From positions 1,674,001-1,707,368 of the forward strand of contig JAYWIR010000044.1 of assembly GCA_036172245.1 (NCBI GenBank): a stretch of 33,368 bases of DNA. Reading direction: 5' to 3'. Numbering within the stretch: the stretch's first letter is position 1; every line of letters starts with the position of its first letter. The notes below the pieces were generated by a model. The model was not told where the DNA came from and ran no database searches. It saw only the letters and a program-made list of their open reading frames with translations. Position numbers and translations under genes: made by a program. Shown in pieces: positions 10,004-33,368 of this stretch. The stretch comes from Raillietiella orientalis (taxonomy: Eukaryota).

Positions 10004-10017
10004 CTCCTGTACAAGGT
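10004..10017 (+). repeat. Left copy of the 14-bp target-site duplication ctcctgtacaaggt flanking D1
   Basis: Identical 14-mer at 11237-11250. Removing D1 and one copy restores ORF1 LLYKVGNL. Confidence 0.93.
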
Positions 10018-11236: not shown

Positions 11237-11250
11237 CTCCTGTACAAGGT
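11237..11250 (+). repeat. Right copy of the 14-bp TSD ctcctgtacaaggt
   Basis: Identical to 10004-10017. The first 2 nt (ct) are also shared with the element sequence. Confidence 0.93.
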
Positions 11251-11782
11251 AGGCAATTTAGTTTCGCCTTTCCGCGCGCGAAAATTTGGGATTGCCATCC
11301 TTAGGATAAGCATTAAGGAAGAGGGGATTGCGTGCCTCTCCGTGCGCAGCGGCAGGCAGTTTGCCGAGTTAATCTGCAAAGATGCAGCTCTGACTCACAA
11401 ACTGCTCTGCACGCCTGTGCAGATGGAGGGTCGTAACATCGTTTTCTATACGGTGAAACGTTCAATTGTGATCCACCTAACGGAAACAACGGTGCGAATG
11501 GACGATACGTCCATTCGCGCCGGAATTGGAAAATATGCAGCGATTTATGCCAAGTGGCGGAAGCCGAACACTTTCGGTATTAGGACTGCCTTTAGCGGGC
11601 GCGTCACCGCACGCGTGACCCGTCGCGAGGGGTGCGAACTTCCCCACAAACTCCAGATAGGCACCGAGTTTGTAGAAGTATGGTATGTGGGGAAGCCGAA
11701 GTTTTGCCTCATATGTAAGACGTTCGGGCATCTCAAAAAGAGATGCCCGGACGCATTATGCCCCACGTGCGGCGCTAAGGGG

Positions 11783-14700
11783 TAGGTGGGGGTGTTCATG
11801 AGCACCGGGGGCCACTTTAATTGTTCCCGCGAAGCATTTAGCAGCTCGCCCCAGCGCAAAAGTCCAATAGGGTTGGTAATCCGGGCCGCAGTATCGCAGA
11901 GAATTCCCGTTTTCAATTCCCCGATCTTTTTCTCCGAACCGGAGATTTTAACATAAACATCCCATTTCGCAGCAGTGTTGCCGTTTAAATGTTCCGCGAG
12001 CGAAAACAGCATGGCAGCAAGGGGAGTTTTTCTTGCCCAAGCTCGTTTTTGGGGGTTCTCCAGGAACTCCCGGAGCAATCAGGCGGTCATTACGGGCGAA
12101 GAACTGTCTCTGCTCTGCTTGAGTGGGTTGCTGGTAGCTCCTTGCCCACGTCTGAACCGTTTCCTGCAGCCATGCTGGTCCGCCACCGGGGCGACAGCAG
12201 AGCCATCCTGCGTTCTTCCTCATCAGGTCAAACAACTAGCCGCAACTGCAACCCAAAGTGACCGACTTGGCGGCGACGACGGAGGGCAAGGAAGGATGAC
12301 AGTCCCTCCTTGCCTGTAGCCTGCACGACGAGGAGATGTGCGGGCTCGCACCAACTGCTATTCCGATATTACGTCACTAGGGTGAGTACCCGAAACTGGA
12401 GCTGGAGCTCCAGCTGCTCTAGCGTCAGGTGTACGAGACCGCCGTTTCGACGTGGAGCGCTCAAGTCCTCAAGGCGGACTCGGGCCCTCCCATTACCCCA
12501 CAGGGCAATCTTTACGAGGTACTTCGTCCGCTTTTTAGTTTCTGTGGTGGGGGGAAAAACAAAAAGCAGGGAACGGAGGAGAAGCGCCGCGAATGCGTTC
12601 CACACCGCGGCCCGTTCCGGCAGGAAAAACCTGCAGCCTTCGAACGGCCCGATCGCCGTCTCTAGCTTTTGAAAGCAGCTGGACCACGTATCCGAAGGGA
12701 GATAATCACCCATCGGTACACCGAGGTACGTGATGTACCGTACCGTGGGGATCCCCATTGGACCCAGTCCGCCTGCCCTGCCCAAGCCGCACCGACTGGC
12801 ATGACGGACGACTTCGCCCTGTTTACCTCAAGCCCGGTTCTCCGATGCAGCATGTCGAAGAACTCCTCGACCGCCGATGCCGGGGTGGAAATAGGGAGCA
12901 GCAGCAGTAAGTCGTTTGCATATGGTGACACCGCGGGCGCACCAGGATAGTCGCGCGGCAGGTGCGCTAGACTTTCCCTGTACGCTCTGAGTACCAACTC
13001 GAAGTAGGTACTGAAGAGCAAGGTACTCAGGCTGTCTCCCTGCCGTATGCCGCGTGGCACCGGCACGCCGTGCAGGGTCTGCCCGCTGAAAGGAACGCTG
13101 TTGAGCGCGTCGCGCTAGCATGAGCGCAGATAGGCCACTAATGAGGCCGGGAAGCCCAAGTGTTCCAGAAGCTCCAGAAGGAGATTTGGTTCGACGGAAT
13201 CGAATGCTTTGCGCAAGTCGATTGCGGCCGCAAGTGCTCCTACTCCCTTCCGACCATCCGACCCCTTGCCGGCGCACGCACCGGAATTCTGGCTGCGAAC
13301 CAAGCTTCTTTCTTGCTGGAGTTCTAGCCAGGTCAAAGCGTGAAACAGGTGCGCCTCCATGCTTCGCCCAGGAATACCATATGTCTGTTCCGGGCTGATG
13401 AAGATGTTGGCAACCCGTCCCAACCTCTCCGTACAAACCCTTGCTAGCTACTTAGCGTCCGCATTCACTATTGTGATGGGACGCCAGTTGTTCATGCACC
13501 TCAGATTTCCTACCTTAGGGAGGGGCCGCACCTTTGCCTAACGAAACGAGGCGGGAACGTTACCTGTCTCGCGTATCAGCAAGGTGAGTTGCTGTACCAA
13601 GGGGGTAAGCTCAGCCGCGAAAGTTTGGTAGAACTCCGCGGGAAGGCCGTCCTCCCCTGGAGCCTTGCGCCTCTTTGCTTTCCGATGGCCGAGAGGGTCT
13701 CGTCCATCGTGAAAGGCTCGTCTAGGGTTTTTCTCTCCTCCTCCCCGAGCGCTCGAGCGCCTTCCGGAAGCAGAAGTCGTGAGACGTTCCTTTTCGGAGG
13801 TGCCCTGGCATACATGAAGGAGTAGTAACTCCGCAGCAGGCCGCGGATTTGGGCGGGTGCCGTGTGCTCCTGGCCCTGTTCGTCCAGCAAGCTGACCGAT
13901 CCGGACGGCCAGGCTTGCCTCTCAGTTCTTGCTTTGTATTCCGCCAGTCTGCGGATGTCGGGGTTTTCGGCGTAACAACGGGCCTGCAGGTAAACGCGTT
14001 CATTACGGACCCCGGTCCCAAAACCCGTGGGTAGGCGGAGCAGAGGGAACTGGTCGCAGAACTCCTGGACCGATGCTTGAAGCGGTCCCAATCCTGGAGT
14101 TTCCGCAGCCTGAAGCTCCGTATGAACGTGCGGAGATGTTACGTTGCGTCCGGGAGCTTCAGCCAATCCCCTAAGAGACGCCACGCTGACGAGGGGGAAC
14201 ACCTGTCGCGCGGATGGATCTCGAAGCCTAGCGGACGAGGGTCGAACAGCTCGCACGGTAACTTGCCGCGCCTGCCCACACGAGTGCACAGGTGCTCGTC
14301 AAGGAACACGTGATCGATGTTGTGCTCCATCCCTGGTACACTGGCCAACAGATTACAAGTATGCACCGCCGCGCACACCTCGTTGACCAGGTCACGCTCG
14401 TTATTCGGCCCAGCCGGTTTCAGACGAACGTTAAAATCGCCTGCAACCAGATGGGCATTCCGCACGCCTGCCTTGGTCAACCAGTCGCGATGGAGGGCAA
14501 AGGCAAATTCTTTCCTGGCCCTCCTGTTCGTCAGGTGCGCTCCGCTCGAGGCGTAAACGTTCGTAACGATCAAGTCGATCGAGTCGGACCAGCTGAGAGT
14601 CAGTTGACCGACACTACCGTGATCGTCGAACCGAACTCCACGGGCGGCGGCCTCGATGGCGGGCCGATGCAGGTAGGCGACACCACAACTTCTCGATGTT

Positions 14701-14903
14701 GCACACCGATACCACAGCCGCCTTCCGTAGATGCGTTCGATCTCCTGCGCTTGTTCTGCAGAGATCACATGGATCTCCTGCAGCAGCACAAGGTCGAACG
14801 ATCCTAGAATGGCCACCATGTCTCGTCTCCTGCCGCCGTCTGTCATGCTGTTCACGTTCCAAATGGCGATGCGCAGAGGACGGCGGGAGGAGATTCCCGG
14901 CAT
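11783..14903 (-). pseudogene. B2 ORF2: APE endonuclease + reverse transcriptase, frameshifted
   Basis: IWNVNS, LQEIH, VTNVYA, AGDFNV and IDHVF (14139..14903); IDLRKAFD (13115..13423); GIRQGDSLSTLLF and PYANDLL (12662..13066); YLGVP (12369..12785). Confidence 0.92.
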
Positions 14904-14905
14904 TA
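14901..14905 (-). promoter_or_regulatory. TAATG overlapping ORF1 stop / ORF2 start (B2)
   Basis: catta on the + strand; both ORFs share base 14903 in the ORF track. Confidence 0.85.
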
Positions 14906-16617
14906 ATGCCGGGAAGATGACGGTGTGGGGAAACCCGCCTCGTAAGAGGCGGGTGAGATGACCATTAGGGTTTCAGCCTCCTCAGGCACCTTGGGTACCT
15001 TTCCGGCTTCCACCCCCTCCATCTCCTCCGTGTCTGTGCGTGGTGGTCTCTCGGGTGACGATTCTCGGGATTCTCCCACGCTCATGGCACCATCGCAGTC
15101 GGAAGTCATCTTCACGCCTTCGATCTGGAGAGGGGCTTTCCGGGGTTTGCTGGACTTCCTTCCAGCCTTCCGGCGGGGTGCCGTGGAGATGGAAACTTGG
15201 TTTCCGGCCTGCGCTTTGGGGTCGGAAGTTACCGACTCCTCGGTGGAGGCCGGACGCCTCACTGCCTTTTTGCTAGCCTTGGAGGGGTCTGGCTGCAACG
15301 ATGCAGCTAGCTCCTCCGCCGCACGCTCGAAGGCGGCGTCATCGATCACGGTCTCGATGACGGACGCTTCCGCCGGTTCGCTCCCCACGCTGTTGACATT
15401 TTCAACAGTGGGCTGCTCGTCGGTAGCAGCGATTTCTACCTTGCGGCGTTCGGCGGGGACTCGTTCCACGACGACGGTGCATTCTTTTAAATTCTCGCTA
15501 ACCTGCTGTTTTTTATTTTGGTAGGCGAGCTTTTTTTCAATTCGTCGTTCTTTCTTCGACTTTTTCTTTTTCGCTGTGGCTTCTTGCCATACCGAAACCT
15601 GACCGCTTTTGTCGATCTCTTCGGCATTCGTTGCCGGGGTGTCGGCTGAGGCCTGGACCACGGAAGTGGGAGGCACAGCTTGAGCGGCAGCCTTCGCCGC
15701 CAGCCTTTTCTGTAGCAGCCGCTCGCGTTTTTTTAGGTTCCTCGCGGAAACCACGCGCACAGCGGATTGTGGACACACTTCCCTCGTGTGGTTCATTGTC
15801 CCGCATACCAGGCACTGTACGTTGGGGCACCTCCTTTTGAGGCGTCCCGACGTGTTTCAGAAGCCACAGTATTTGGGCTTCCCCACGTATCAGAGGTCGA
15901 CACTTTCTCCGCCGACCACCAGTTTGTGGGGAAGGGTAGAGCCCTCCCGAAAGGTTACACGGGTAGCCGTGAAGCCGCACTGAACTGTAATATAGTCCTC
16001 AAAAGGACTAGGCTTGGTCCATACTCCATGGACCGTGCCTTCTTTTCACAACGCGGCGCGTAACTGTTCTTTCCGCATCCACGCGGTAGCTCCTAAAAGG
16101 TGGACCACCATACTCTGGTCCGCCGTAACGGGAAGGAGCCTGCGTGTCCCCATTACCACGGGGGTTTAAAGCTGACGTTGGGCCAGATCTGCATGTTTGC
16201 AGATCACCTCTACGTACTGCCCCCCACTACGAATGGTCATAGCGCTGAGCTCCTCCTCTTTAACATCGAGAGCGCGCATCCCCTTCGAAAAGGCGCGCGC
16301 ACTCTCAGCAGAATACAAATTTCCTACCTTGTAGAATAGTGATGAGTTATACCCCTCTTCCACATAGTCAGATAATTCCGCCGCGGCTGCAGGCGAGGCG
16401 CCGACACGATGGCGCTCCACGCCCGCGCTGCAGCGGGGACCGGTTTTGTGGGGGCGAACGTTCCCAGATCCTTCGCCACTGAAGGCGACGTTGCCGCCGC
16501 CTCCTGGCACTCCACCTTCCCTATAGGCGACGTTTCCGCCGCCAACTGGCACTCCATTTCTTCAGGAGGCGACGTTGCCACCGACCCCTGACACGCACTG
16601 GTGGTCGTGTCAGTCAT
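14903..16617 (-). pseudogene. B2 ORF1: nucleic-acid-binding protein with two CCHC knuckles and a K/E/S/P-rich tail
   Basis: ATG at 16617 (MTDTTTS). SSLFYKVGNLYS (16166..16552), degenerate knuckles at ~15780-15870 and a low-complexity tail (14903..15796) ending in TAA that overlaps the ORF2 ATG. Confidence 0.88.
16484..16595 (-). repeat. Imperfect 42-bp tandem repeat (14-aa unit) in the ORF1 N-terminus
   Basis: ggcgacgtt recurs at 16484, 16526 and 16568; encodes ATSPPEEMECQLAA / ETSPIGKVECQEAA / ATSPS. Related units occur in B3 and B4. Confidence 0.8.
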
Positions 16618-16711
16618 TGCTGCCAGATCGACCACCACCACAGACGAAGCCTACACCTAGGGACGGTTCCCGGCACGAGGAGCACCGAGGAAACACGTCC
16701 GCTCTAGCCGA

Positions 16712-18867
16712 TGTAAAGCTTTCGACTGCCGTCGACCAGGAGCTCTAGAAGGAGCTCCTGGAACGCTTGGGATTTCCGGCCGTCTTTCTGGCCTACCTGC
16801 GCTCCTGCTGGCGCTTCGCGCTCATCAATATCAACTTCAGAGGCCGGCACGTGTTCGGCGTGCCGGTTCGTCATGGCATCCGGCACGGTGACAGCCTCAG
16901 CCCCCTGCTCTTCAGCATCTACTTTGAGTTGGTGCTGAGAGCATACAGGGAGACTTTGGCAACCCTGCCGAGCTCGTGTCCCGGCACGCCTGCCGTGTCG
17001 GCCTATGCCGACGATCTTGTGCTCCTGCTTTCCGGGTCCACCCCGGCATCGGCGCTAGAGGATTTCTTCGAGTTGCTATACCGTGGGACAGGCCTCCAGG
17101 TGAACAGGACGAAGTCGTCGTTCCTTTTCACCGACTCGACGAGGGCCGGATGGTCGGAATGGATCCGCTTGGGGATCCCCACGGGCAGGTACATCAAGTA
17201 CCTTGGCGTTCCGTTGGGGGACTTCTGCTCTGCAGAAGCCTGGTCCGAACGTCTACAAAAGGTGGAGCTGGCGATCGGCCCGTTCCGGGACGGCAAGTTT
17301 CACTTGCAGGAAAGGGCCAAGGTAAGGAACGCTTTTGCGCCCCTCCTTCCTCGCTTCCTACTTTTTGTGTGCCCTACCCCGTATCAAATTAGGACACGGA
17401 CTAGGAGCCTTATACGAAAAGCCCTCTGGGGCAACCGGAGGCCTCGCGTCCGGCTCAAAGACTTGTGCGCTCCACGCAGGGACGGTGGACTTGGTGTCCT
17501 CACGTTGGAGCGCATATAGCGACAGCTCCAATTCAGAAAACTTGCCCTTGTGGCAAAGTTTTGGACAGCATCCTGGTGTGCACCAACAAGACTCCTTGCT
17601 CACAGGGCAAGCGGCTGCTTCGTATTGACATCAATCCTGGTAGCCAACGAACGCAGCCTGAACCATCGTGGTTATCAGCTGCGGGATTTGGTTGCTCTGA
17701 TGAGAGACAACCCTGGGATCTCCTGGATCCCTGCGGACTGTTCTACCTGGCTTCAGGAGTCCGTATCCGCATGGGCGAAGATCAATGGCACCAGCGATGA
17801 GGACTTCTCCTGCCTCCGCAGAGGGAGTCACGCTGGTCATCCACTCTAGGAGATCGTTTCCAACCCACGAAAACTTCTGTGGGCTTCCTTCACCACCCTT
17901 GCCCCAGTGCTGCCCTCCCTCAGGGAAGTTCGGGACAGCCACCAACAGGCATCGTGGGAAGTGTCCTGCCTCATCGGAGGCAGGAAAAAATCACTGAAGG
18001 CGCGGACGCCGAGGGAACTAGCGGACGCTAGTACCCCGAGTGTCCCGCCGAACGGACTTTTACGCTGGGGCGCGCTGCTCGGTATACCTCCGAAGGAGGT
18101 GAAGTGGCCCCCAGCGTCATGGGACAACGGCACCCTTCCCCTGCAGTGGAAGGAGACGGCGTTGCTTCTGCTCCACTGGGGACTTTTAAGCAGAGCACGC
18201 CTGTCTCGCTGGACATCGGGGAATGTGGATGCTAGTTGTGCAGAGTGCGGGGAAAGGGAGACCTTCTTCCACTTTATTCTGGAGTGTGTTGCCCTCCACG
18301 AAATGCGGGACAGACTCTCGTCGACCCTCAACATTCCGGAGGGTGACCCGAAAAATCTATTCAGAGGCCTTCTGACGCGAGACGGCTTGCCAGCCTCCGG
18401 GAGCGTAGCAGTGCTCTGCTGCATACGCGGTATCCTGGAGAAGTGGACCGCGTCTAGGAGAGGAAGCACCAGCCGGAATGCCATCCACTGGGCAGCAATC
18501 TCCTTGGAGAAAGCGTGCCGTTGGCGCCGACTTCAAAAACATTTACCGGCACTTGTTCGCATCCGAAACCGGATGCAAAGGCCTGCTCACGGCGCACCGT
18601 GATCCCCTCCCTCCCTCCCGCTCCCCAAAAACATTGCCCTCCAGACGTTTTTCTTTTTTTGTTTTGTTTTCTGTTTATTTTCCCGGTACCGGCGCCAGTG
18701 AAGGACTTTATCGGCTTCCGGGTCGATAAAGACAAGTGCTATTGAACTTCAATGAACGTCTGACGTCCGAAAAAGAAATTTTTTTTTTTTACAACAAAGA
18801 CCTTGTTACAAAATTTTGTAATGTCAGAATTTTAGTAATAAAAGCCCCGGCTTACCCGGGTGAAAAA
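16712..18867 (+). mobile_element. Family D copy D2: RT C-terminal half from the KAFD motif, zinc finger and 3' UTR
   Basis: Begins tgtaaagctttcgac (CKAFD). GIRHGDSLSPLLF, AYADDL and KYLGVP in 16767..17519; CAECGERETFFHFILEC in 17907..18602; AATAAA at 18837 and terminal ccgggtgaaaaa. Confidence 0.92.
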
Positions 18868-19735
18868 CCTAGGATGGGAGACGTGAGGCCCATGTCTCCC
18901 CAACCCATGGAGGTGGGGTCATGCCCCACGAGAAAATCAGCCCCCGCCACCCCGGCGTGGGCGTGGAACAAGGTAGCCGCGGCGGCTCCGCCGAACGTGG
19001 CCGCCTATGTGCAGGCCTACATACAGGAGTGCTACAACCCAGCCCTCCTTTACAAGGTAGGAAATCTTTATTCACCGCTTACAACGCGGAAATTTAGAAA
19101 CGCCATCCGTAGGATGAGAATCTCTGACGAGGAGATTCTTTGCTTCTCGATTCGGAGCGGCGGGCAGTTAGCGAAGCTGATCTGCAGAGATGCAGCGCTC
19201 ACACACAAACTGCTCTGCACTCCCGTTTCGTTCGAAGGGCGGAATCTCCTCCCACAGACGGTGGATCACTCTATGGTGATCCACCTCACGGGTACAACGG
19301 TGCGGATGACCGAGGAAGCCATCCGCACTGAAATCAACAAGTTCGCGGAGATATACGCGATGTGGTCGAAGCCCAACGCCTTTACTTATCGAGGAGCATT
19401 CAGTGGGCGAGTTGCCGCACGCGTAACTCTCCGCGAAAACAAAGAACTTCCCCACAAGCTGGAGGTCAACGACGAGCTCGTCGACCTCTGGTACGTGGGG
19501 AAGGAAAAATACTGTGGGCTGTGCAACACATTCTGGCAACACATTCCCTCTGCACCGCCTACCTACGGGTTTTGGGAGCGGCGTCCGTAACGAACGAGCC
19601 TACCTTTGGTCTCGTCGTTATTCTACGACCCTCGACATCCGCAATCTAGCGGAATATAAAGCGGGAGCCGAGAAACGAGCCTGGCAGTGCGGATCGGCCA
19701 GATTGCTGGACGATTAAGGCCAGGAGCATTCAGCG
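18868..19735 (+). mobile_element. Internally deleted LINE: ORF1 up to the first knuckle, fused to the APE-RT linker
   Basis: ORF1 ...AYIQECYNPALLYKVGNLYS...WYVGKEKYCGLCNTF (18874-19533), then FPLHRLPTGFGSGVRNERAYL...LAEYKAGAE (19514..19717), which matches the ORF2 linker of B4. Confidence 0.85.
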
Positions 19736-20694
19736 TTTATTAATAAACTCTACATGCGTGGTACGAGGCCCCATCACGGCCTCACCACTGCCTTCCAGCA
19801 CTCAATCAAGGTTGCTGATCCGTCCGCGTCCGTTATAGCGTCCTCTGGAGCACACGAGAAACCGTGCGCGGGTGCCCTCGGAGCTGCCTCTCAACGGCAG
19901 TCTCCTCCTACGGCGGTGGAGATCACGTCTTCCACGGCGAAGGCACGAGCAGCGAAGGCTGCAATAGTGCCTCACGGGACTACGGCAATGACCGTTGTTT
20001 CGCTCGCTTCTTCTAAGGAGCAGGTGAAGTGCGTAACGGGGACGGAGCCGTCTCCCGTCGCGAACGCGAAAGTGATCCGGCATCTGCGGCCAAACAATTC
20101 AGAGAGGCGTCGGCCTCCCAGGAGGGCGTTCCCGAGGGGGGCTGGACTCGCATCTCCAGTACGCCCACAAAGGGGAAGAGGAAGGTTGACCCTTCAATAT
20201 TCCCCATCCTTAAGGTGGGTGGGGGACAGAAGAGAGGCACTCCGAAGAAGGCACGTACCCAGGTACGCACTACGGCTGCGTGCTCTGTCTCTGTGGCATC
20301 GCGCGAGAGGGCGGCTGCGGAAGCCAAAGCTCCGGAAGCAGGGTTGGCGTCTACGAAGACCCCCGCGCGGGCAGGGCAAGCCTCCAACTGCCGCAACAAA
20401 AAGAGACTGGCAAAACGCCAGTCTCGCGCCATGCACTCGGAATCCGAGGTGGAGTCCGAGTGCAAACAAATAGAGCGCCGATCCCGGGGTGAACCGGTAG
20501 CGCGCAGGGCTATAGTGCGAAAGCACGAACCTGTTTTCGGAGGCGGTTCCGGCTCCTGTACGGAGACCGAGGCGATGATCCTCGGCTACCAAGACTCAGC
20601 TGAGCGCGATGTGGCTGCGAACGGGAGCGATTCAGCTTCCCAATTCGCTCTCCTACCAGCTGACTACTCGCCTGACGGGGAGAGGAGCACGCTG

Positions 20695-20699
20695 TAATG
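20695..20699 (+). promoter_or_regulatory. TAATG overlapping ORF1 stop / ORF2 start (C)
   Basis: ORF 20029..20697 ends in TAA that overlaps an ATG. APE motif CWNVNAL lies ~50 nt downstream, now one frameshift away. Confidence 0.7.
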
Positions 20700-23600
20700 T
20701 CCGCAGCAGTGCTGCGTGTACTCGCTCCGCTCGTGGCGTCAGCGTGGCCTGTTGGAATGTGAACGCGCTACGTGATGCTGACAAAAGGCGAACGGTAGCC
20801 AACGCTTTGCGTGCGTTCGATCTGGTGCTGCTGCGGGAGATACATAGCATCTTCGACCTGCAGGCATCGGATTTGGAGGAGAGCCCGGGCGGGACGCTAC
20901 ACTGGCGGCAAGGCTCCGCGCACACGTGCGGAGTCGCGTTTCTCGTCCGAGTCAGGGTGGCGGAGGCGTTGCGGAACGTTTGTTTCCACCAGGAAGGTCG
21001 TGTGGGCCAACCTGTCCTCAAGTGGTCCGAATCGATCGACCTGGTCGTTACGAACATCTACGCGCCGAGCGGCGGCCGGCATTACGCCCAGCGACTTGCA
21101 TTCCTGGGTGGCCTGCGCACCCACTGACTCCCTGACTCCGGCGCTAACGTGGCGCACCTCCTTGCAGTAGACTTCAACGTCCACCTGCTAACAGAGGAGA
21201 GATGCGGCTTGAGGGAGAAGCAGCTGGTGAGCGAGGTATGCGCGTCCGTGCGCGTGCAAAACTTGCTTGCTGGTGAGCCCGGGATGGAGGGATCGCGGGA
21301 CCATGCATTCCTCGATGAACACCTGCTCTCATGAGTAGGTCGGAGAGGGCGCCTGCTGTCCTCGATTTCGGATCATCCGAGACTGGAGTTCGAGCTCCTC
21401 CTGCCTGGCAAAGGGCCTTTGATAAATGTCTGGAGGCTGGCGGCCGACTGGCTTAGAAATTCGGAGGCGGCGGGGCATCTCCGCCAACACCTCCGGGGCT
21501 TAGCCATCTGTGACCTCGAGGACTGGGACGATCTGAAAAGATCGGTCCGCGAGTTCTGCTGCCGGTTTCCCTTGCACCTGCTTCCCCGCGGCTTCGGGGA
21601 GGGTGTCGCCAACAGCAGATCCTATCTGCAGGCGCGTGCCTTTTCAAGATGCCCGGACGTCCGGCGTCTGGCGGAGTATAAGGCCAGGGCCGAGCGCCAG
21701 GTTTGGCAGTCTGGAGCGGCTTGTCTGCTCTATGACGCTGGTTAGGAATGCTCGGCTGCAGGCGAAGTACACCGCGTAGTCAAGCGCTACTACTGCTCGT
21801 TGTACGCGGAGGAGACCACGGAACGCAGTTTCTCCGAGCTGCTTCTTCCGACGGGTAACCCTGCTATCGACGAGGAGGAACGCGCCAGATTGGATTAACC
21901 CTTCACGGCGGAAGAAGTATTTACCTCCATAGCAAGCCTGAATAAACGTAAGGCGCCAGAGAAGGATGGGCTGCCTGCGGAGTTCTTTCAGTGCTTCGCG
22001 GCGGAGCTCGTCCTCCTGGTGCTAAGCCTTTCCTCGCTGTTCGGTAAGACGGGAGATGTTCCCGCTTCTTTCCGCTCAGCAAAGGTGCGGCTCCAGCCGA
22101 AAGACGGGGATTTGAGTCACCTCAGCTACTGGCGTCCGATCAACTTGGTGAAATCGGACGTCAAGCTGTTCTCAAAGCTATGGGCTTCGCGCCTGGGGAG
22201 AATCGCGGAGTTCTTGGTAAGTCCGGAGCAGTCGACCGCAGTTCCGGGGTGGTTCATGGACGCGAATCTCTTCTTCGCGCGAACATGGTTCGAGTTGCAG
22301 CAGCGTGTGGCGTAGCAGAGCCACGCAGCCGAAATCGCCTCTGCCAAAGGTAAGCGGCGGTGTTCAAGGCACGATGGAACGCCGGGAGCCTTAGCGGCCG
22401 CCGTCGATCTCTGCAAAGCTTTCGACAGCGTAAACCAGGAGCTTCTTCTAGAGCTTGTTCGACGCCTAGGCCTTCCGACGCAACTCATCGCCTACTTGCG
22501 CTCCTGCTGGCGCCACGCGTTATGATTTATCTCTTTCAGCGGGCGCCAAATGTACGGAATTCCAATACGGCGGGATATCGTACATGGAGACAGCTTATGC
22601 CCCTGCTTTTCAGCATCTTCTTTGAGTTGGTGCTGAGGGCGTACAGGATGACTCTAGCTAACCTGCCGAGCTCCTGCCCGGGAACACCGACCGTGGCCCC
22701 CTATGCTAACGACGTTCGCCTGCTGCTGCCCATGTCCACCCCGGCATCTAGGCTCGAGGACTTCTTAAAGCTCATTCGTCGGGGAGCGGGCCCCAGCGTC
22801 AACACGATGAAATTAACCGTTGCCCCGGTTGGTTCTACGTGAGAGGGGCAGTCCGAATGGATCTGCCTGGGGATCCCCACAGGCAGGTGCTTGAAGTACC
22901 TCGGCGTTCCCTTGGGCGCCTTCTTTCCAGCAGAAGCGTGGTCGAACTGCCTTCACAAGGCAGAGACTGCTCTGAGCCCGTTCCAAGGCGGCAGGTTTCT
23001 CCTGTCGGAACGCGCCTTTGTGTGGAACATTTGCGTTGCCTCCCTCCTCAGTCCTTTCTTTTTGGTTTGTCCCCCTCCCTGCTCGGCTAAGCGCCGGGTG
23101 CAACGCCTGTTGCGTAACACCCTGTGGGGACCGGCGAGGTCCAGGATACGCCTGAAGGACCTGGCGCCTCCTCGGCGGGATGCAGGATTGGGCATCCTGA
23201 CGCTGGAGCGGATCGGACTGCTAGTGCAGTTCCGCATGCTGGCACTTTGTGCGCAGCTCTGGACAACTCCCTGTTGTGCTCCAGCGCGGCTGCTGCTGCG
23301 GCGCTGCACGGGTGGCGACGGACTACGTTCGTTGCATCTGCGCACGGAGCGCGCCCAGAGAGGATTCGGCTTCCCTTTGAAGCAGGTCGCCACGCTTCTG
23401 GGAAAGCATGAGTGGATCTCCTGCCGGCCGACGAACTTCAACGCCTGGAGGCAAGAAGCCTTATCGTCCTGGGCAGCGGAACAGGATGTGTCCCGTTTAG
23501 AACTCCGTTGCGTGAAACTTTCCCATACAGTCCAGTGGGGGAGGTGCTGGAAGACCAGCACCAGTGTACACGCCTAGCCGCTACGCCACTCGCCGAAGCA

Positions 23601-24281
23601 CTGTGTGCACTGATGGTGCGAGATGACACTGACCTGCCTGCGAGGTGGGAGATCACTTGCGAAATCGCAGGCGAAACCCGACTGCTGAACGGCTGGCGGA
23701 CTTGCGAAGTGGCAGACTCTGCCACACCTCGCATTCTCGCAAAGGGGCTTCTCCGGTGGAGTGAGCTCCTCGGGGTGCCGACCGATGAACTTGTGGTCCC
23801 TTCTGCGTGTTTGGACGCGACTCTCTTCCGCCTTCGGTGGAAACAGGACGCTTTTATGCTGGTGCATTGGGGGTTGTACTGCAACCAGCGGGCGAACCTG
23901 ATTTCCGAATAAGTTGCTTCCCCGATCTGTGACCAATGCAAAGCGGTGGAATCGCTTCCTCATTTGCTGTTTGAGTGCGGTGCCCTTTAGGATCTGTGGC
24001 GGCGGTAGTCTTCAGCGCTCCTGCACCTCGGACACACCGCACTCGATTGAATGCGCCGCTTTCACACGCGTGGCAGTCTTTCTCATGGAGCGGTCTTCGC
24101 AATCATCTGCAGCGTTCGCGCCATTTTCAGGGCCCGCCACGTATTGCAGATGCGAGCAGTCCTAACATCGGTCCCCGCTACCGCACCCTGCAAACTGCAA
24201 ATGGCAGCCGGGTGGCCACACCTGGGAGCAGAAGTGAGGACGGAGATCGGCGGCGTTTACCGCCGGTTCTCAGAACAGTAA
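20697..24281 (+). pseudogene. C ORF2: APE + RT + zinc finger, many stops and frameshifts
   Basis: CWNVNAL, LREIH, VTNIYAP, VDFNV, DHAFLD, YWRPI, VDLCKAFD (22403-22426), PYANDV, KYLGVP and CDQCKAVESLPHLLFEC (~23928-23978). Confidence 0.9.
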
Positions 24282-24479
24282 CGGCTAAACTGTATACCCC
24301 TATCCCCGCCCTCCTTCCTAATTGATTTATTTATTGTCCCATCCCCTCCTGTTCCGAACTCTTTGTGTACCCGGCTCGCGCTCCGGGAAATCTACTCCCC
24401 ATTCTCTGTTCCCCTTCCCTGGGTACACAGTTCGCATTTGATATTATGAATAAACGTCTCGCCGCAACCGGGTATTAAA

Positions 24480-25675
24480 CGACATCGCCGCATTCTTCTA
24501 TTTGCTCGCTTGCCTGCTGTTTTTTCTGGCGGTACGCGAGATTTTTTTCTGATCTCCTCACCTTCTTTGGTTTTTTGGCCGTTGCCAATTGACACCCATT
24601 CTCCTGGTCGGCTCCCTCAACTTTTTCGGTGTTGGTAGTCAAAGTCTCGGATGCGGCCTGGATCATGGGCGCGGATGGCACAGCCTTCGCGGCAGCTTTC
24701 GCCGCCATCCTTTTCTGCAGAAGCGGGACGCGTTTTTCAAGGTTTCTCTATGGAAACCACCCGCACTGTTGCTTTAGGGCACACCTCTTTCGTGTGACCT
24801 ATTCTGCCGCATACTTGGCACTGAACGTTGAGACACCTCTTTTTGAGGTGGCCCGACGTGTTGCAGAAGACGCAATATTTCGGATTCCCCACATACCAGA
24901 GGTCGACGGTTTTGCCTTCGACCACCAGTTTGTGGAAAAGAGTGCAGCTCTTCTGAACAATGAAGCGCGCATCCGTGAATCCGTGTTGAAGCCCCGTGTA
25001 GTCCTCGAAAGGACTAACTTTCGTCCACTGCGCGTGGACCGTTCCAAATTGTTCGAGCGCGGCGCGAACCTGTTCTCTGAGCATTCCGTGGTTGCGCCTG
25101 ACAGGTGGACCACAATGCTACGGTCCGCCGTAGTGGGGTGGTGCCGGCGCGTCCCCATCACAACGGGAGTTTTAAGCAGTCGTTGGTCCAGGTCTGCTTG
25201 TTTGCAGATGACCTCAACGTACTGACCCTCACTGCGGATGGTCATAGAGCTGACCTCCTACACTTTCACATCGAGAGCGCGCAAGTTCTTCGAGAAGGCG
25301 CGCGCTCTCTCTAAAGAATAAAGGTAGCCAACCTTGTAGAATAATGAGGAAATGTACCCCTCCTCTACACAGGCCGAGAATTCCGCCGCGGCTGCTGGCG
25401 ATGGCGCCGACACAACCGCGTTCCACGACCGCCCTGCAACGGGGATTGATTCTGTGAGGGCGGATGCTTCCACCTATATCGCCTCTTGGAGCGACGTTGC
25501 CGACGCCCCCTGGCTCTCCATCGCCTCTGGGGGCAGCATTTCCGCTGCCCCCTGGCCATCCCAGGTGGTCGCGTCAGGCATCGCTGCCAGATCGACCACC
25601 AAACCACACGACATTTGCACTGAGGGAGACTTCCTCGCGCGAGGAGCACCGCGAAAACACGTCCACCTTGGAGCA
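24480..25675 (-). mobile_element. Family B copy B3: 5' end and ORF1 N-terminal two-thirds
   Basis: ATG at 25581 (MPDATT), SSLFYKVG and intact double knuckle CVFCNTSGHLKKRC..CQVCGRIGHTKEVC (24737..25084). Ends at the C 3' end. Confidence 0.92.
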
Positions 25676-25689
25676 GTCAAGGCGTTCGA
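25676..25689 (+). repeat. 14-bp target remnant gtcaaggcgttcga between B3 and B4
   Basis: Lies between the B3 5' end and the B4 3' tail; 12/14 identical to 31261-31274; reads V-K-A-F-D on the + strand. Confidence 0.85.
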
Positions 25690-25907
25690 TTTTTACCGGG
25701 ATTTCGCCTGGGCATTTGATGTAAAATAAACTTTTACAAAGACGTGCGGTGGCTGGACCATTGCTCCAGCCACGCACGAAGAAACACAGAGCCTACCGGG
25801 TCACCGGTTTGCGGACCGGTACGGTCCATCACGGCAGCAGGAGTAAGGGGGAGAAACAAAAAACAGAACAAAAAAGAAAAGAAAAGTTGGGAGGGTAAGG
25901 GAAGGGA

Positions 25908-28900
25908 TCACAGTTGCTGGTGCGGCAGTTGCATCCTTTTCAGGATGCCGGCAAGCTCCTTCTGTATTCCTGGATACAGGTAGGGCAATCGGGACGTTCT
26001 CCTCAGGAACTGGGAGGCTGGCTGGATGGCACCCTGGTCGCGATGTCCTCCCGTAGCCTTGCTCCAGGCGGTGACGATCCCGCGTAGGCAGCCCAATCCT
26101 GCTGACGAGGCCGCTGGCCGAAAAGCGTCGGAAACGAAGAGGGCTTTCGGTGCGTCCCTGGGTTGCCGCAGGGGATTCTGATGGCCGCAGCAAAGCGAAA
26201 CCAAAGGGGCCAAAGGGCAACACAATCCACTAGCAGGTGGGGTAGGGACTCCCGCTCCTCACACCTAACGCAATTGGGGTCCACCGCTCCCCAGGTCCAG
26301 TGGTGTCGGCGGGCGTTGCAGAAGAGTAACCAGTGCTGCAACAGGAGAGCCGAGTCCTGCCATTTCAAGGGAAGGGCGGAAGTGTTCATGAACACCGCTG
26401 GCCACTTCAGATGTTCAATAAGAACATCGAGCAGCGCGCCCCAGCGCAGAAGTCCATTAAGAGGCGTACTCGGTGTCCCAGCGTCTGTTAACTGGCCCGT
26501 CTTCCACTCTCCTATCTTCTTCTCCTCTCCGGAGATTCTTACTGTAACCACCCACTTCGCCGCAACATCGCTATCCAGATGTTCCATCAGGAAGGGCAGC
26601 GCAGCAGCAAGGGGAGTTATTCCTGCCCACGATCTCTTCTTTGGATCCTCCAGGATCTCGCGAAGCGTGCAATTTCTGTAACCCCCAAACAGGAAACTTC
26701 GTTCCTGTTGAAAGCATTGCATGCCGAACTGTCCTTACGTTCGAACGGTTTCCTGCAACCAGGCACTACCGTTCAAAGGGCGACAGGTGAGCAATCCTGG
26801 GTTTTTGCGATGCAGCGCAGCCACCCTCCGTGGATGGAGTCCGAATCGCTTGACGCGGCGACGGAGTGCAAGTAACGACGTCAGTCCCGTCTTGCCGGTG
26901 GGTTGCTGGAGAAGAAGACGTGCAGAGATGCACCAACAGGTGCATCACAACTCTGGAGCGAGTGCAGACAATCGGAACTAGAGCAGAAGCTCCAGCCGCT
27001 CCAACGTCAGGAGGCCCAGACCACCATCCCGACGAGGAGCGCACAAGTCCTTTAAGCGGACTCGGGCCCTCCCGTTGCCCCAAATGTCGATACGGAGGAG
27101 GTTCTTCGTCCGCTTTTCGATCCTCTATGTGGGGGGCCAAACAAAAAGCAGGGAGCGGAGGAGAGGAGCCGCAAACGTGTTCCAAACCGCGGCCCGTTCA
27201 GGCAGGAAAAACCTGCCGCCTCGGAAAGGGCCGATTGCCGTCTCCACTTTTTGGAGACAGCCGGTCCACGCTTCCGCAGGGGGGCAGTCCCCCAAAGGCA
27301 CACCAAGGTACTTGAAGTACCTCACCGTGGGGATCCCCAAACGGACACAGTTCTGCTGCCCTGCCCACGCCGCACCAACTGGCATCACTGACGATTTCTC
27401 CCTGTTCATCGTAAGCTCAGTTCTTCGATTCAGAAGTTCTAAGAACTTCTCGACCGCCGCAGCCGGGGTGGACATAGGAAACAGCAGCAAAAGGTCGTCC
27501 GGTTATGCTGAAATGGCCGCCGTACCGGCACAGTCGTGCGGCAGGTGCGCCAGAGTTCCCCTGTACGCTGTCAGTACCAACTCAAAGTGGGTACTGAAGA
27601 GCAAGGGGCTCAGGCTGTCTCCCTTGTGGATCAAACGCCGCACCGGTACGCCGTGCACGGTCTGCCCGCTGAAAGTAACATTGATGAGCGCGTTGCGCCA
27701 GCAGGAGCGCAGATAGGCAACTAATGAGGCCGGGAAGCCCAAGCGTTCCAGAAGCTCCAGAAGGAAATTCTGGTCGACATAATCGAATGCTTTTCGCAAG
27801 TCGATTGCGACCGCAAGGGCTCCCTCCCCCATCACTCCAACCCCTTGCGGGCGCACGCACTGGGATTCCGGCTGCGCACCAAGCTCCTTTCATGTTGGAG
27901 CTATAGCCAGGTGGAAGCGTGAAACAGGTTCGCCTCCATGCTTCGCCCGGGAACAGCATATGTCTGTTCCGGGCTGAAGAAGATGTTGGCAACCCGTCCC
28001 AGACGCTCTGCCCAAACCTTAGCCAGCAACTTGGCGTCCGCATTCACTATTGTGATGGGACGGCAGTTGTTCGTGCTCCTCAGATCTCCTCCCTTAGGGA
28101 GCAGCCGCACCTTTGCCGAACGAAACGAAGCGGGAACGTCACCTGTTTCGCGTATCAGCAAAGTGAGTTGCTGTACCAGGGGGGTAAGCCTTCCCGCGAA
28201 AGCTTGATAAAACTCCGCGGGCAGGCCGTACTCCCCTGGAGCCTTTCGCCTCTTGAGCTTTCCGATGGCCGAGAGGATCTCGTCCATCGTGAAAGGCTCG
28301 TCGAGGGTTTTCTCTGCTCCTTCCCGATCGCTGGAGCGCCTTCCGGAAGCAGGAGTCGTGAGACGTTCCTCTCCGGAGGTGCCCTGGAATACAGGGAGGA
28401 ATAGTAATCCCGCAGCAGGCCGCAAATTTGGGCAGGTGCCGAGGGCTCCTGGCCCTGATCGTCCAGTAAGCTGGCCGATCCGAACTGCCAGGCTTGCCTC
28501 TCGGCTCCCGCTTTGTATTTCGCCAGCCTGCGGAAGTCGGAAGACCTGGTGTAACGACGGGCCTGCAGGTAGGCTCGTTCGTTACGGACCCCGGTCCCAA
28601 AACCCGTAGGTAGGCGGTGCAGAGGGAACTCGTCGCAGAAATCATGGACTGACCGCTTGAAGCGGTCCCAATCCTGGAGTGTCCGCAGCCTGAAACTCCG
28701 CATGAACGTGCGGAGATGTTCCGCCGCGACCGGGAGCTTCAGCCAGTTTTCTGGGAGACGCCACGCTGACGAGGGGGGGCCCCTGTCGCGCGGTTGAATC
28801 TCGAGGACTAGCGGGAGATGGTCGGACAGCTCGCACGGTAACTTGCCGCGCCTGCCCACGCGAGGGCACAGGTGCTCGTCAAGAAACACGTGGTCAATGC

Positions 28901-29483
28901 TGTCTTCCATCCCCGGTGCACTGGCCAACAAATTACAGGTGTGCACCGCAATGCACACCTTGTTGACCAGGTCACGCTCGGGATTCTGCCCATCTGGTTT
29001 CAGGCGAACGTTGAAATCGCCTGCAACCAGATGGGCATTCCGCACGCCTGCTTCGGTCAGCCAGTCTCGCCGGAGGGCAAGGAAAAACTCTTTCCTCGCC
29101 CTCCTCTTCATTAGGTCTTTGCCGCTCGGTGAGCACACGTTCGTGACGATCAGATCGATCGAGTCGGACCACCTGAGAGTCAGCTCGCCGACACGACCGT
29201 GATCGTCGAACCGCACACCCCGTGCCGCGGCCTCGACGGCTGGACGAAGCAGGTAGGCGACACCGCAACTTTCCGCTCTCCCACACCTGTACCATAGCCG
29301 CCCTCCGGAGATCCGTTTCATTTCTTGCGCTTCTTCTGCAGAGATCACGTGGATCTCCTGCAGCAGCGCAAGGTCGTAGCACTCCAGAAGGGCGGCCATG
29401 TCTCGTCTCCTGCCGGCGTCTGTCATGCCGTTCACGTTCCAAACGGCGATGCGCAGACGACGGCGGGAGGAGATTCTTTGCAT
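25908..29483 (-). pseudogene. B4 ORF2: APE + RT + zinc finger, frameshifted
   Basis: VWNVNG, LQEIH, AGDFNV, IDHVF and SDH (28155..29483); KAPGEYG, LLPKGGD and CRPI (27901..28425); IDLRKAFD and GDSLSPLLF (27503..27856); catalytic site decayed to A*PDD; CVRCEERESLPHLLVDC (26003..26722). Confidence 0.93.
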
Positions 29484-29485
29484 TA
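29481..29485 (-). promoter_or_regulatory. TAATG overlapping ORF1 stop / ORF2 start (B4)
   Basis: catta on the + strand; ORFs 29483..29698 and 28155..29483 share base 29483. Confidence 0.85.
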
Positions 29486-31166
29486 CTGCTGGGAAGATTG
29501 AGGTGTGGGGGAGCCCTCCTCTTGCGAGGCAGGCGGGATGTCCATGGGGGTTTCGGCCTTCTCAGGCACCTGAGACACCTGTTCGGCCTCCACCCCCTCC
29601 ATCCCCTCCATCTCCTCCGTGTCAGTGCGTGAGAGTCTCGCGGGCGACGGGTCCCGAGAGTTTCCCACGCTCATGGCACCCTCGCTTGCGGAAGCCATCT
29701 CTTCCCCTTCGACGGGAAGACGAGCTTCCTAGGCGTTGTGGACTTACGTACAGCCTTCTTGCACGGTGCCGTGGAAACGGAGTCTGCGTATTCGGCCTCC
29801 ACCTCGGGGTCGGAAGTGGGGGACTCCTGAGGGGAGACCGGACGCCTTGAGGCCTTCTTGCCAGCCTTGGAGGGTTCTGGCTGCAACGAGGCTGCCAGCT
29901 CCTCCGCGGCTCGCGCGAAGGCTAAGTCATCGATGGTGGTGTGCATGACGGACGCCGCCGTCGGCTTGCTCCCCTAGCTGTTGCCAGAGTCAAGAGAGAA
30001 GAGGTCGTCGGTAGCGGCGAGTTCTTTCCGGCAGCGTTCGGCAACATCGAGAACGCGTTCGACAACGACGCTGCACTCTTTAATAATCGCGCTACCCTGC
30101 TCTTTCTGCTTCTGTTGGTAGTCGATTTTCTTTTCCATCCTCCTCTCCTTCTTTGATTTTTTTGCCGTTGCCACTTAGCACTCAGTCTCCTGACCGGCTC
30201 TCTCAACTTTTTCGGCGTTGGTCGCCGGGGTCTCGGGTGCGGCCTGGGTCTTGAGCGCGAGTGGCAAAGGTTTCGCGTCAGCTTCCGCCGCCAGCCTTTT
30301 CTGCAGAAGCCGGGCGCGTTTTTTAAGGTTTCTCTTGGAAACCACCCGCACTGCTGCTTTTGGCACACCTCGCTCGTGTGACCCATTGTGCCGCATACTT
30401 GGCACCACACATTGGGACACCTCTTTTTGAGGTGGCCCGACTTATTGCAGAAGCCACAGTGTTTCGGCTTCCCCACATACCAGAGGTCGACGGTTTCGCC
30501 TTCGACCACCAGTTTGTGGGGAAGAGTGCATCCCTCCCGTACGGTCACGCGCGCAGCAGTGAGGCCGTGTTGCAGATCCTTCTAGTCCTCGAAAGGACTG
30601 AATTTTGTCCACTGCGCGTGGACTGTTCCGTATTCCTCTCACGCCGCGCGAACCTGTTCTTTGCGCATGTGCGCGGTAACACCTAACAGGTGGACCACCA
30701 TGCTGCGGTCCGCCGTAATAGGGAGGAGCCTGCGCGTTTTCATCACTACCGGGGTTTTAAGCAGTCGTTGGGCCAGCTCTGCTTGTTTGCAGATGACCTC
30801 AAAGTACTGACCCCCGCTGCGGATGGTCATAGCGCTGAGCACCACCTCTTTCACATCGAGAGCGCGCATGCCCTTCGAGAAGGCGCGCCCGCTCTCTAAA
30901 GAATATAATTTGCCTACCTTGTAGAACAATCAGTGGTTGTACCCCTCCTCTACATAGGCCGACAATTCCGCCGCGGCTGCAGGCGATGGCGCGGATACAA
31001 TGGCGCTCGACGCCCGCGCTGCAGCGGGGACCGATTCTGTGGAAGCGGATGGCTGCACCTCCATCACCTCCGGGGGCGACGTTGTTGCCGCCCCCTGGCT
31101 CTCCATCGCCTCTGGGGCCGCCGTTGCCGCTGCTCCCTTGCCATCCCTGGTAATCGCGTCAGGCAT
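29483..31166 (-). pseudogene. B4 ORF1 with two CCHC zinc knuckles, frameshifted
   Basis: ATG at 31166 (MPDAIT), FYKVGKLYS and CGFCNKSGHLKKRC..CQVCGTMGHTSEVC (29922..30548). Confidence 0.92.
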
Positions 31167-31260
31167 CGCTGCCTGATCGACCACCGAACCACACGAGGCT
31201 TGCACTGGGGGAGACTTCCTCGAACGAGGAGCACCAAGATAACACGTGCACCCTGGAGCA

Positions 31261-31274
31261 CGCAAGGCGTTCGA
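31261..31274 (+). repeat. 14-bp target remnant cgcaaggcgttcga between B4 and B5
   Basis: Lies between the B4 5' end and the B5 3' tail; reads R-K-A-F-D on the + strand. Confidence 0.85.
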
Positions 31275-32151
31275 TTTTCACCCGGATTTCGCCGGAGCGT
31301 TTATTGTAAAATTAACTTTTACAAAGACGTGCGGTGGCTGGACCTTTGCTCCAGCCACGCACGAAGAAACACAGAGCCTGCCGGGTCACCGGTTCGCAGA
31401 CCGGTACGGTCCACCACGGGAGCAGGGGAAAGGGGGAAAAACAAAAAACAAAACAAAAAGAAAAGAAAAAGTTGGGAGGGTAAGGGAAGGGATCACAGTT
31501 ACAGGTGGGGCCGTTGCATCCTTTGCAAGATGCCGGGAAGCTCCTTCTGTATTCCTGGATCCAGCTGGGGCCATCGGGACGCCCTACTTAGGAACTGCGA
31601 GGCTGGCTGGATGGCACCCTGTTCGCGTTGTCCTTCCGTAGCCTTGCTGCAAGCGGTGACGATCCCGCGTAGGCAGCACAAAGCTGCTAACGAGGACGCT
31701 GGCCGAAGGGCGTCGGCAACGAAGAGGGCTTTCAGTGCGTCCCTTGGGTTGCCGCATGGGATTCCGATGGCCGCGGCAAAGAGAAACTAAAGGAGCCGAA
31801 GGGCAACACAATCCACTAGAAGGTGGGGGAGGGACTCCCGTTCCCCACACCTGACGCAATTGGGGTCCATCGCTCCCCAGGTCCAGTGGTGTCCACGGGC
31901 GTTGCAGGGGAGTCCCCAGTTCTGCAACAGGAGTGCCGAGTCCTGCTATTTTAAGGGGAGGGCGGAAGTGTTCATGAGCACCGGGGGCCACTTCAGATGT
32001 TCAATGGGAACATCGGGCAGCGCGCCCCAGCGCAGAAGTCCATTGGGAGGCGTACTCGGAGTCGCAGCGTCTGTTAGCTGGCCCGTCTTCCACTCTCCTA
32101 TCTTCTTCTCCTTTCCAGAGATTGTTACTGTAACCACCCACTTCGCCGCAA
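31275..32151 (-). mobile_element. Family B copy B5: 3' UTR and ORF2 C-terminus only
   Basis: Collinear with B4 25690-26565; similarity ends after cccacttcgccgcaa at 32151. Confidence 0.9.
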
Positions 32152-33368
32152 GTCGTTGTGGTTGAACCACACTCCGCGGGTCCTGTGGGTAAACCTTCCT
32201 AACATCATCTCTGTATACCGAAGTATACGTGTTTGATGTAGGTAGCCTCCTCGCCTCCACTCCTGGATTTGCAGTAGGGTAACTCTGGACCGCTGGTAGA
32301 TCCAGCTTCTCGTGTCCGGCGGGACAGGAAGCAACCAAGGGATCACCAGGATAAACTCGTCCTGCCAGAGTTCCCTGCTTCGCGGCACGATCTTGATTTG
32401 GTGCTTCCGCACCAGCCGTTGCTTCCTCCTCCAGGTCGGGTCGATTGTTATCCATTTCCCTACTTTGCCTAGCAGCGCAGTCATCAGGCCTTTCGAGATG
32501 TTAAGCAACAACGCGTAGGCCCTGTGCGCCGCATACGGTTAGTCATCCCAGTAAGTGGCCATGTCCAGGATGTGTCGCGTATCCATGATTTCCATGGAAT
32601 GTGCAAGCGACTTCATCCCGGAACCGCCTTCTACCCTGGGACGACACAGGGGTTTCAGTCTTACTCTTGGGCGATAGTGGCCCCAGAGTGTTTTTCTTTG
32701 CAGCTTGTCGAACTCCCTAGTAGTGTCCTTGTTCATCCTCGCGAAGGCCGCCCCGAAGAGCACTTTCGGTAGGAGTACTCCGTGTCATATGTTGGCCTTT
32801 CGCTTCATCCCAAGGTCCGTTCGGGTGTACTTGGCTGCTTCCTTGGCCATTTTCCCCAGGATTTCCTTCCACAGCAGCTTCGACGCAGAGCCGTCGCCGA
32901 TGTAGACTCCCAGGTACTTGGCCTTGTCCACCGTACGAAATCCACTACCCGTTAGAGTAGAGAGATCCAGTATTCCGACGGGCAAAAGCTGGCTCTTCTG
33001 GGAATTGATTTTTAAGCCCAAGCCCTGTTCCATCTGGTCCACCACATCCAGAAACGCACGCTGATTTTTCTTTCCCTTGATGAAGAAGAGTAGATCATCG
33101 GCGTATGCCAGATGGGTAAGACGCTGGCTAGCGATGGTAATCCCGCATAGTCCTCCGCTCTTCTGGATAAAGGACGACAACGCCTCCATATAGATGACGA
33201 TCAGCATCGGACTTAGCGAGTCGCCCTGTCGGACTCCTCGTTCCAACCTGATTGCTGCCGTCTCCCGGCCGTTGATCTTGATCCGGCAGTACGGGTTCTG
33301 GAGTACCGCCCTCACGAAGATACTGAAGTGTTCCGAAAGCCCTAGCTTCTCCAGAACCCGTGTGCTCC
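32152..33368 (-). mobile_element. Family A copy A2: RT C-terminal half, running off the window
   Basis: GVRQGDSLSPML, LAYADDLLFF and KYLGV (32785..33315); KLQRKTLWGHYRPRVRLK is shared with A1. Confidence 0.92.

Follow-up and report, generated by a model that had tools for sequence, protein, structure and literature searches.

Head-to-tail arrays of a site-specific LINE in Raillietiella orientalis probably grow at a target copy carried on the element's own 5' end

Three copies of element B in a single array

The window analysed here, 33,368 nucleotides at the end of a contig (C44; JAYWIR010000044.1, positions 1,674,001 to 1,707,368) in the 210-Mb assembly of Raillietiella orientalis, holds a nest of decayed long interspersed nuclear elements (LINEs). 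Three pieces of one of these LINEs, element B, lie head to tail on the minus strand with two 14-base spacers (14-mers) between them. Such arrays are probably built by sequential site-specific re-insertion, in which later copies enter a target-like 14-mer borne on the 5' end of an older copy, so that the array grows element-upstream, in the window from B3 through B4 to B5.

The oldest of the three, B3 (24479-25675), consists of the 5' 1.2 kb of the element, covering the 5' untranslated region (UTR) and the first part of open reading frame 1 (ORF1), and its 3' part is absent from the window. It is followed by the spacer GTCAAGGCGTTCGA (25676-25689, plus strand), the target-like end of B3, which was nicked after its last A by B4 and runs there into TTTTT. 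B4 (25690-31260) is a complete B element, decayed by stops and frameshifts. Its own target-like end, the spacer CGCAAGGCGTTCGA (31261-31274, plus strand), was likewise nicked after the last A, by the youngest copy, B5 (31275-32151), of which the 3' 877 bases are present and which begins at the junction with TTTTC. B3 is 82% and B5 90% identical to B4, which is the only whole copy; B3 and B5 have no sequence in common. The preliminary description of this DNA, with three diverged copies in the same orientation and a 14-mer at each junction, was confirmed, save that B3 starts at 24479 and not at 24480; B5 ends at 32151.

The arrangement recurs across the genome. A 35-base junction pattern has 32 genome matches behind B as against none for its reversed control, and the equivalent pattern for the sister subfamily B' has 11 as against none in the controls. 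The junction is very uniform. Within the window, the 12-mer has 13 matches where 3.96 are expected, a number reached in 0 of 100 shuffles.

Element B targets a coding motif in sister LINEs

B inserts site-specifically, in antisense orientation, at the DLxKAF/D codons of the reverse transcriptase (RT) of sister LINEs. Thirty exact B 3' ends, chosen irrespective of their flank, are preceded by TTCGA in 29 cases and by GTCGA in one, as the earlier claim that B copies arrive one after another at the same bond would have it. Of these sites 21 are in host-LINE RT (antisense), six lie behind a B 5' end, three are elsewhere and none is in the RT of B itself (0/30). The 14-mer is present at all 30 exact B 5' ends and leads into host RT in 26 of them and into a B 3' end in the remaining four. 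When all the sequence analysed is taken together, the target rule holds at 99 of 101 B 3' ends and the 14-mer is found at 104 of 108 5' ends. B' uses the same bond, and 9 of 30 of its 3' ends are tandem. The tandem share of ends (6/30 and 4/30 for B, 9/30 for B') is thus 13-30%, which is unremarkable because the genome has 822 exact host sites for B and only a few hundred insertions; by our own estimate plain re-use of sites explains this share, with no need for any special attraction.

Sites of B's own type appear to be seldom used, at most a possible hint of self-avoidance. The KAFD 14-mer of B4 itself (CGAAAAGCATTCGA, 27783-27796, minus strand) is empty, and counts of exact filled versus available sites, made with patterns of unequal length, are 65 versus 822 for the host type and 2 versus at least 77 for the own type. 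Nine own-type sites are filled, four by B and five by B'. Among 50 broken or truncated ends, examined for matches to the left site only, 9 have a 10-15 base copy of that site, two of them at off-target places, while the remaining 41 have none and mostly stop at nested insertions or deletions. The 5'-truncated B copies carry true target duplications.

The RT motif contains a second TCGA, and at one locus (L220, in C8) a B' copy has entered there, on the opposite strand; TCGA may thus be the core of recognition. In the window, B1 (5127-6707), which shares 80% identity with B4, has TACAAGGAGTTCGA of an A-like RT as its site and adjoins a piece from the interior of B (6705-6860). B2 (11776-16725) is a B' copy, and its 5' 14-mer TGTAAAGCTTTCGA (16712-16725) is of the B' type and runs into host RT.

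The spacer at full-length 5' ends mostly follows the element

The preliminary description took the spacer to be a KAFD remnant. Insertions that retain both ends (n=21) allow the 14-mer at the 5' end to be compared with the host site at the other end. It is unlike the insertion's own host site in 13 and has the host form in two; three are undecidable, and three were dropped because their flanks are mismatched. The 13 mismatches argue against plain duplication, under which both ends of an insertion should show the same host sequence. (Paired 5' ends were located in 8 of 14 and in 0 of 7 stretches of sequence, the others being probably interrupted.) One host family has the empty site CACAAAGCATTCGA; in five insertions into it the flank is that of the host from about +1 onwards, and the 14-mer is of B type in three of them and of host type in two.

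The same distinction is seen in larger samples. Host sides (n=37) are not like 5' ends (n=93) in their base use at positions -13, -12, -9, -6 and -5, with p values of 0.0008-0.02; a G at -5, for instance, occurs at 14 of 93 B 5' ends and at 0 of 37 host sides. The B' 14-mer of YGTAAAGCT type is found at 10 of 11 B' 5' ends as against 1 of 17 host sides (p=9e-6). Collectively these comparisons show that the 14-mer at full-length 5' ends mostly follows the element subfamily and not the local host, so that the description as a KAFD remnant holds for the distant origin of the spacer only.

Two further observations concern the 14-mer. A GGTCGA variant is present at 14 of 93 B 5' ends, and at 5' ends only. 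Its perfect complement, GGTGGTCGA, lies some 85 bases into the UTR, a possible hint of an RNA stem or of copying by fold-back. In C37, a truncated B' copy lies behind a full B' 5' end and has a B'-type 14-mer on both flanks, as expected for duplication of the older copy's end; a host of such a type is possible but rare.

An element-type spacer could also arise if the 14-mer were a host duplication, not carried by the RNA, that was later homogenised by gene conversion or ectopic crossover, with re-insertion still building the arrays. Crossovers between B copies do occur, and 2 of the 15 informative insertions retain the host form of the 14-mer. However, the swap ends at the nick, with the host flank beyond it true to the empty site, the 14-mer is subfamily-specific, and truncated copies retain host duplications, all of which make this explanation unlikely.

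Insertion order and the direction of array growth

In the window, the age of a copy was taken as its differences from the family majority over shared columns. Over 1195 such columns B3 differs at 145 and B4 at 82 (p=1e-5), and over 876 B4 differs at 60 and B5 at 40 (p=0.05). The stack in the window therefore runs from the oldest copy on the left (B3) through B4 to the youngest on the right (B5), which means that every newcomer attached itself by its 3' end to the 5' end of a copy already present. Across the junctions compared, with two duplicate loci excluded and the subfamilies separated, 19 of 25 B-B junctions have the older copy on the left (sign test p=0.015, Wilcoxon 0.004), as do 23 of 30 junctions of all kinds. 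In a comparison restricted to identical columns it is older in 8 of 8 B-B pairs, and in a second three-copy array (C32) divergence falls from 0.113 through 0.093 to 0.047. The region compared is not the cause of this bias, since the 5' part is more diverged than the 3' part in only 8 of 20 whole copies. The polar age gradient that the preliminary description led one to look for is thus present. Arrays thus gain copies chiefly at an older copy's 5' end, as a bias that is not strictly one-sided: the chronological stack proposed earlier stands, and its strict one-sidedness does not.

That description had also named a growth route, re-use of the upstream half-site. New copies would then land at the host-left half-site, before the 3' end of the older copy, and B3 would be the newest and B5 the oldest of the three. 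The left site does retain the 14-mer and a T, three of three same-region B/B' pairs have the greater distance to the B majority in their right copy, and 6 of 25 B-B junctions are tied or have the older copy on the right. Yet divergence in the window falls from B3 through B4 to B5, the 19 of 25 junctions and 8 of 8 identical-column pairs run the opposite way, and, when measured against its own subfamily, the right-hand B' copy is younger in four of five cases. With B3 the oldest copy, the half-site route has to be given up for the window, and as a general account we consider it distinctly unlikely.

Template jumping, which is a property of R2, would join copies differently, the RT passing from the 5' end of one B RNA to the 3' end of another within a single insertion. 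It predicts the same junction and explains an element-type spacer, and there are about seven junctions with near-equal ages on both sides, so that jumping may account for the few equal-aged pairs. As a general explanation it is very unlikely, because it predicts equal ages whereas B3 and B4 differ at p=1e-5, and because the tandem share is about what our own estimate expects from plain site re-use.

Least probable of all, and to our minds barely credible, is that a unit spanning the junction was copied by tandem or segmental duplication or co-mobilised by read-through: the junction is indeed very uniform, two junction loci duplicate others (C357/C49 and C103/C32) and the raw left-right distance correlation over 32 junctions is 0.23 (p=0.06), but the two ends of 18 whole copies correlate at 0.79 (p=0.001), only 2 of 32 junctions have the same nearest neighbour for their two sides, the closest pairs differ by 5.9% and 4.3%, and the adjoining copies in the window are far apart, B3 and B4 differing at 209 of 1195 columns with seven shared derived sites and B4 and B5 at 90 of 876 with four. 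An age-corrected Mantel test does not separate junctions (0.07) from controls (0.10) and is a test without power here, and the 32 junctions give no sign of co-mobilised junction-spanning units. The earlier view that no recent or segmental duplication is involved is therefore upheld.

Crossovers have reshaped some arrays. The loci L163, L164 and L169, in C103 and C32, are duplicates of one locus at which a three-copy array has collapsed to two copies by crossover; the single right copy in C103 matches the middle copy of C32 for 1.6 kb and is then closer to the right copy of C32, and is thus chimeric. Three of 21 whole insertions have flanks from different host families.

Several points weigh against re-insertion at an element-borne 14-mer. 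Neither outer end of the array in the window survives, and the age contrast between B4 and B5 reaches p=0.05 only. Before the subfamilies were separated the excess of older left copies stood at 24 of 37 junctions (p=0.10), 15 of 45 junctions were dropped because fewer than 150 bases could be aligned on one side, the six tied or reversed B-B junctions remain, and crossovers that yield chimeric copies, as in the flank swaps, blur the ages. Among the 13 insertions with an unlike 14-mer, one (L157) could reflect CpG decay and two (L156 and L161) are sister copies, and variants of the 14-mer cluster weakly on a star-like tree of the 5' region built by a quick method, on which 3 of 200 shuffles score as low. 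Lastly, an RNA that starts with the 14-mer and anneals to the target is a step that is probable from the sequences and not part of the observed pattern.

A proposed mechanism

The pattern that is established comprises a fixed nick, antisense orientation, a 14-base duplication, a lineage-marked 5' 14-mer and an age bias. Under re-insertion at an element-borne site, full-length B RNA would begin with a copy of the 14-mer, and the end of the cDNA would anneal to the target overhang, giving exact 5' junctions. Mismatches between cDNA and target would be settled mostly in favour of the element, and wherever a full-length copy inserts, its 5' end would be separated from the host sequence downstream by a canonical site. 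This site, in which the canonical 14-mer is followed by the original downstream bases, would be cut more readily than the site before TTTTCAC. Later copies would then re-use the 5'-end site of an older copy more often than its 3'-end site, and consequently arrays would grow element-upstream. Other site-specific families, deletions and crossovers would later cut the array.

What element B is

By its sequence, B is a retrotransposon without long terminal repeats (non-LTR), of the apurinic/apyrimidinic endonuclease (APE) type, belonging to the L1 group in the wide sense; it shows target duplication and 5' truncation and has no LTR. In B4, ORF1 (29922-31166, minus strand; first ATG at 31166) is broken, its limit at 29922 being provisional, and encodes two zinc knuckles, Cx2Cx4Hx4C and Cx2Cx4Hx4C-like. 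The ORF1 of a sister copy resembles CCHC/ZCCHC3-like clusters (scores 0.91-0.94), with a weak Pfam match (E 0.13). The APE endonuclease part of ORF2 (28155-29561, minus strand) matches Pfam Exo_endo_phos with an E value of 1e-10, and the RT and C-terminal zinc region (26003-28581, minus strand) is in pieces; a sister B copy has an open frame of 1215 amino acids (RVT_1, E 4e-21). The 3' end consists of AATAAA, a short hairpin and four A, with no poly(A).

B and most of its hosts form a single radiation whose RTs are 53-91% alike. This radiation is a branch of its own (100*) and is about 30% identical to database proteins, none of which is a named Tx1. A homologue search with the B RT returned distant matches only, apart from two unnamed metagenome proteins at 68-71%, and one with the B4 endonuclease piece returned no match.

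The 5' end was also inspected for a ribozyme. No Rfam match comes near the gathering score between 30900 and 31600, a layout like that of the hepatitis delta virus (HDV) ribozyme, tried by eye, does not fit, and the consensus fold of 97 B 5' ends reaches only -1.9 kcal/mol in a model without pseudoknots, which leaves room for a diverged ribozyme. A GACGTGTT(T/C) box, possibly an internal promoter, is common to all families and lies 15-30 bases in from the 5' end (31240-31250 in the window; also in A, F and a fourth family). They also have in common a 3' end with AATAAA and a CCGG hairpin but no poly(A), which is possibly a recognition signal for the RT.

Comparison with known systems

A close parallel is R1 in the 28S ribosomal DNA (rDNA) of Drosophila, whose tandem arrays are spaced by a 14-bp duplication and are proposed to grow when a new copy enters this duplication beside the 5' end of one already in place (Stage and Eickbush 2009, PMC2718515). 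Both are APE-type site-specific LINEs with head-to-tail copies, a target spacer of about 14 bp and growth at the 5' end (in B as a bias), and the resemblance to arrays of other site-specific non-LTR elements suggested in the preliminary description thus extends to layout and growth route. However, the target of B is an RT motif of sister LINEs that varies among host families, whereas that of R1 is 28S rDNA. Furthermore, R1 RNA of the ancestral type is described as having no target sequence at its 5' end and variable 5' junctions (PMC2718515), while the 5' junctions of B are exact and lineage-marked.

In this last respect B resembles R2. R2 elements with target sequence on the 5' end of their RNA form a heteroduplex between cDNA and target and have uniform 5' junctions, and those of an earwig and a sow bug carry inherited, substituted copies of the downstream target (Eickbush et al. 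2013, PMC3774820). Uniform 5' junctions and, probably, an inherited target copy are common to both, but the endonuclease of R2 is restriction-like and its RNA has an HDV-like ribozyme, whereas B has an APE and no ribozyme was found in it.

Insertion into other transposons is known from the Tx1 clade, also L1-group LINEs with sequence-specific targets: Tx1 is found in Tx1D, Tx1-Mar and SINEU-3 in Mariner-N4_AMi, and Tx1-8_Crp and Tx1-4_AMi target LTR elements; where SINEU-3 stands in tandem about a single duplication, sequential insertion is given as the cause (Kojima 2015, PMC4494074). The targets in that account are DNA transposons and LTR elements, in contrast to the coding motif of related LINEs that B enters. 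Zepp and ZeppL of green algae, L1-group LINEs that likewise pile up in nests, do so by insertion into existing copies of their own, mostly as 5'-truncated 3' ends (PMC8226300, PMC3446292), whereas B enters other families in antisense orientation, often at full length, and fills own-type sites rarely. A search directed at this point in mostly open-access literature, without Repbase, returned no account of LINEs whose target is the RT motif of another LINE.

Neighbouring families and the nest

The left bound of the array is a family-A element (19798-24478, plus strand), whose 3' end interrupts B3 in ORF1 at A's own recurrent target site (ACGAC...). A recurrent 1.2-kb 5' piece such as B3 might be taken for a terminal repeat; this was ruled out, the fixed break being the target of family A. 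Copies of A (the window copy and L121-L150) insert antisense at the fixed ACGAC site in B ORF1, while B enters A-like RT, and A and B thus target each other reciprocally. ACGA or a one-letter variant comes next at 30 of 30 A ends, 18 of which lie at or beside the B3 break position in B ORF1. Family A also occurs in head-to-tail pairs spaced by its own target-like end (L122, L148). On the right, B5 is joined to a family-C LINE fragment (32150-33368, minus strand; 97-98% identical to other C copies) with a 2-base overlap and no duplication, which reads as a deletion that removed the 5' part of B5.

B copies are also broken at four or more other fixed points, where in each case a different family ends, at positions equivalent in B4 to about 28020-28040, 29320-29331, 29864-29876 and 30044-30062 of the window. 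One of these families, F, inserts in the same orientation with a 10-13 base duplication, the 5' side of which varies as that of B does. Elsewhere in the window, 10014-11238 and 17642-18870 are two 3' parts of a single family, inverted and 95% identical, and 700-2400, at the edge of the nest, is AT-rich (40-44% GC) with no match elsewhere in the window. Genome-wide, B copies crowd at contig ends, on contigs of small size and in a few blocks further in, a distribution that would suit large nests in heterochromatin or at centromeres.

Implications

Tandem arrays spaced by a target duplication are already known from R1, and an array alone is no surprise; what is added here is the age polarity and the element-borne spacer. 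To our knowledge the rDNA target is uniform, and a duplicated target could not there be told from one carried on the RNA. The hosts of B vary at several positions of the 14-mer, which makes the origin of the spacer testable from sequence, and 13 of 15 informative 5' junctions are of the element type. This bears on an open step of LINE integration, second-strand priming, for an element of the APE type, and B arrays in addition give the order of insertion. The B endonuclease would be a natural sequence-specific APE enzyme aimed at a protein-coding motif.

A wider reading, offered tentatively as somewhat short of probable, is that a guild of LINE families hits one another's conserved coding motifs, and that the RNA 5' end of each bears a heritable copy of its own target that primes the second strand, overwrites the host site with the version preferred by its lineage and plants an optimal landing pad for later copies. 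If this is true, the layers of an array would be datable and would show which subfamily was active when, and the choice of target could drift through the RNA.

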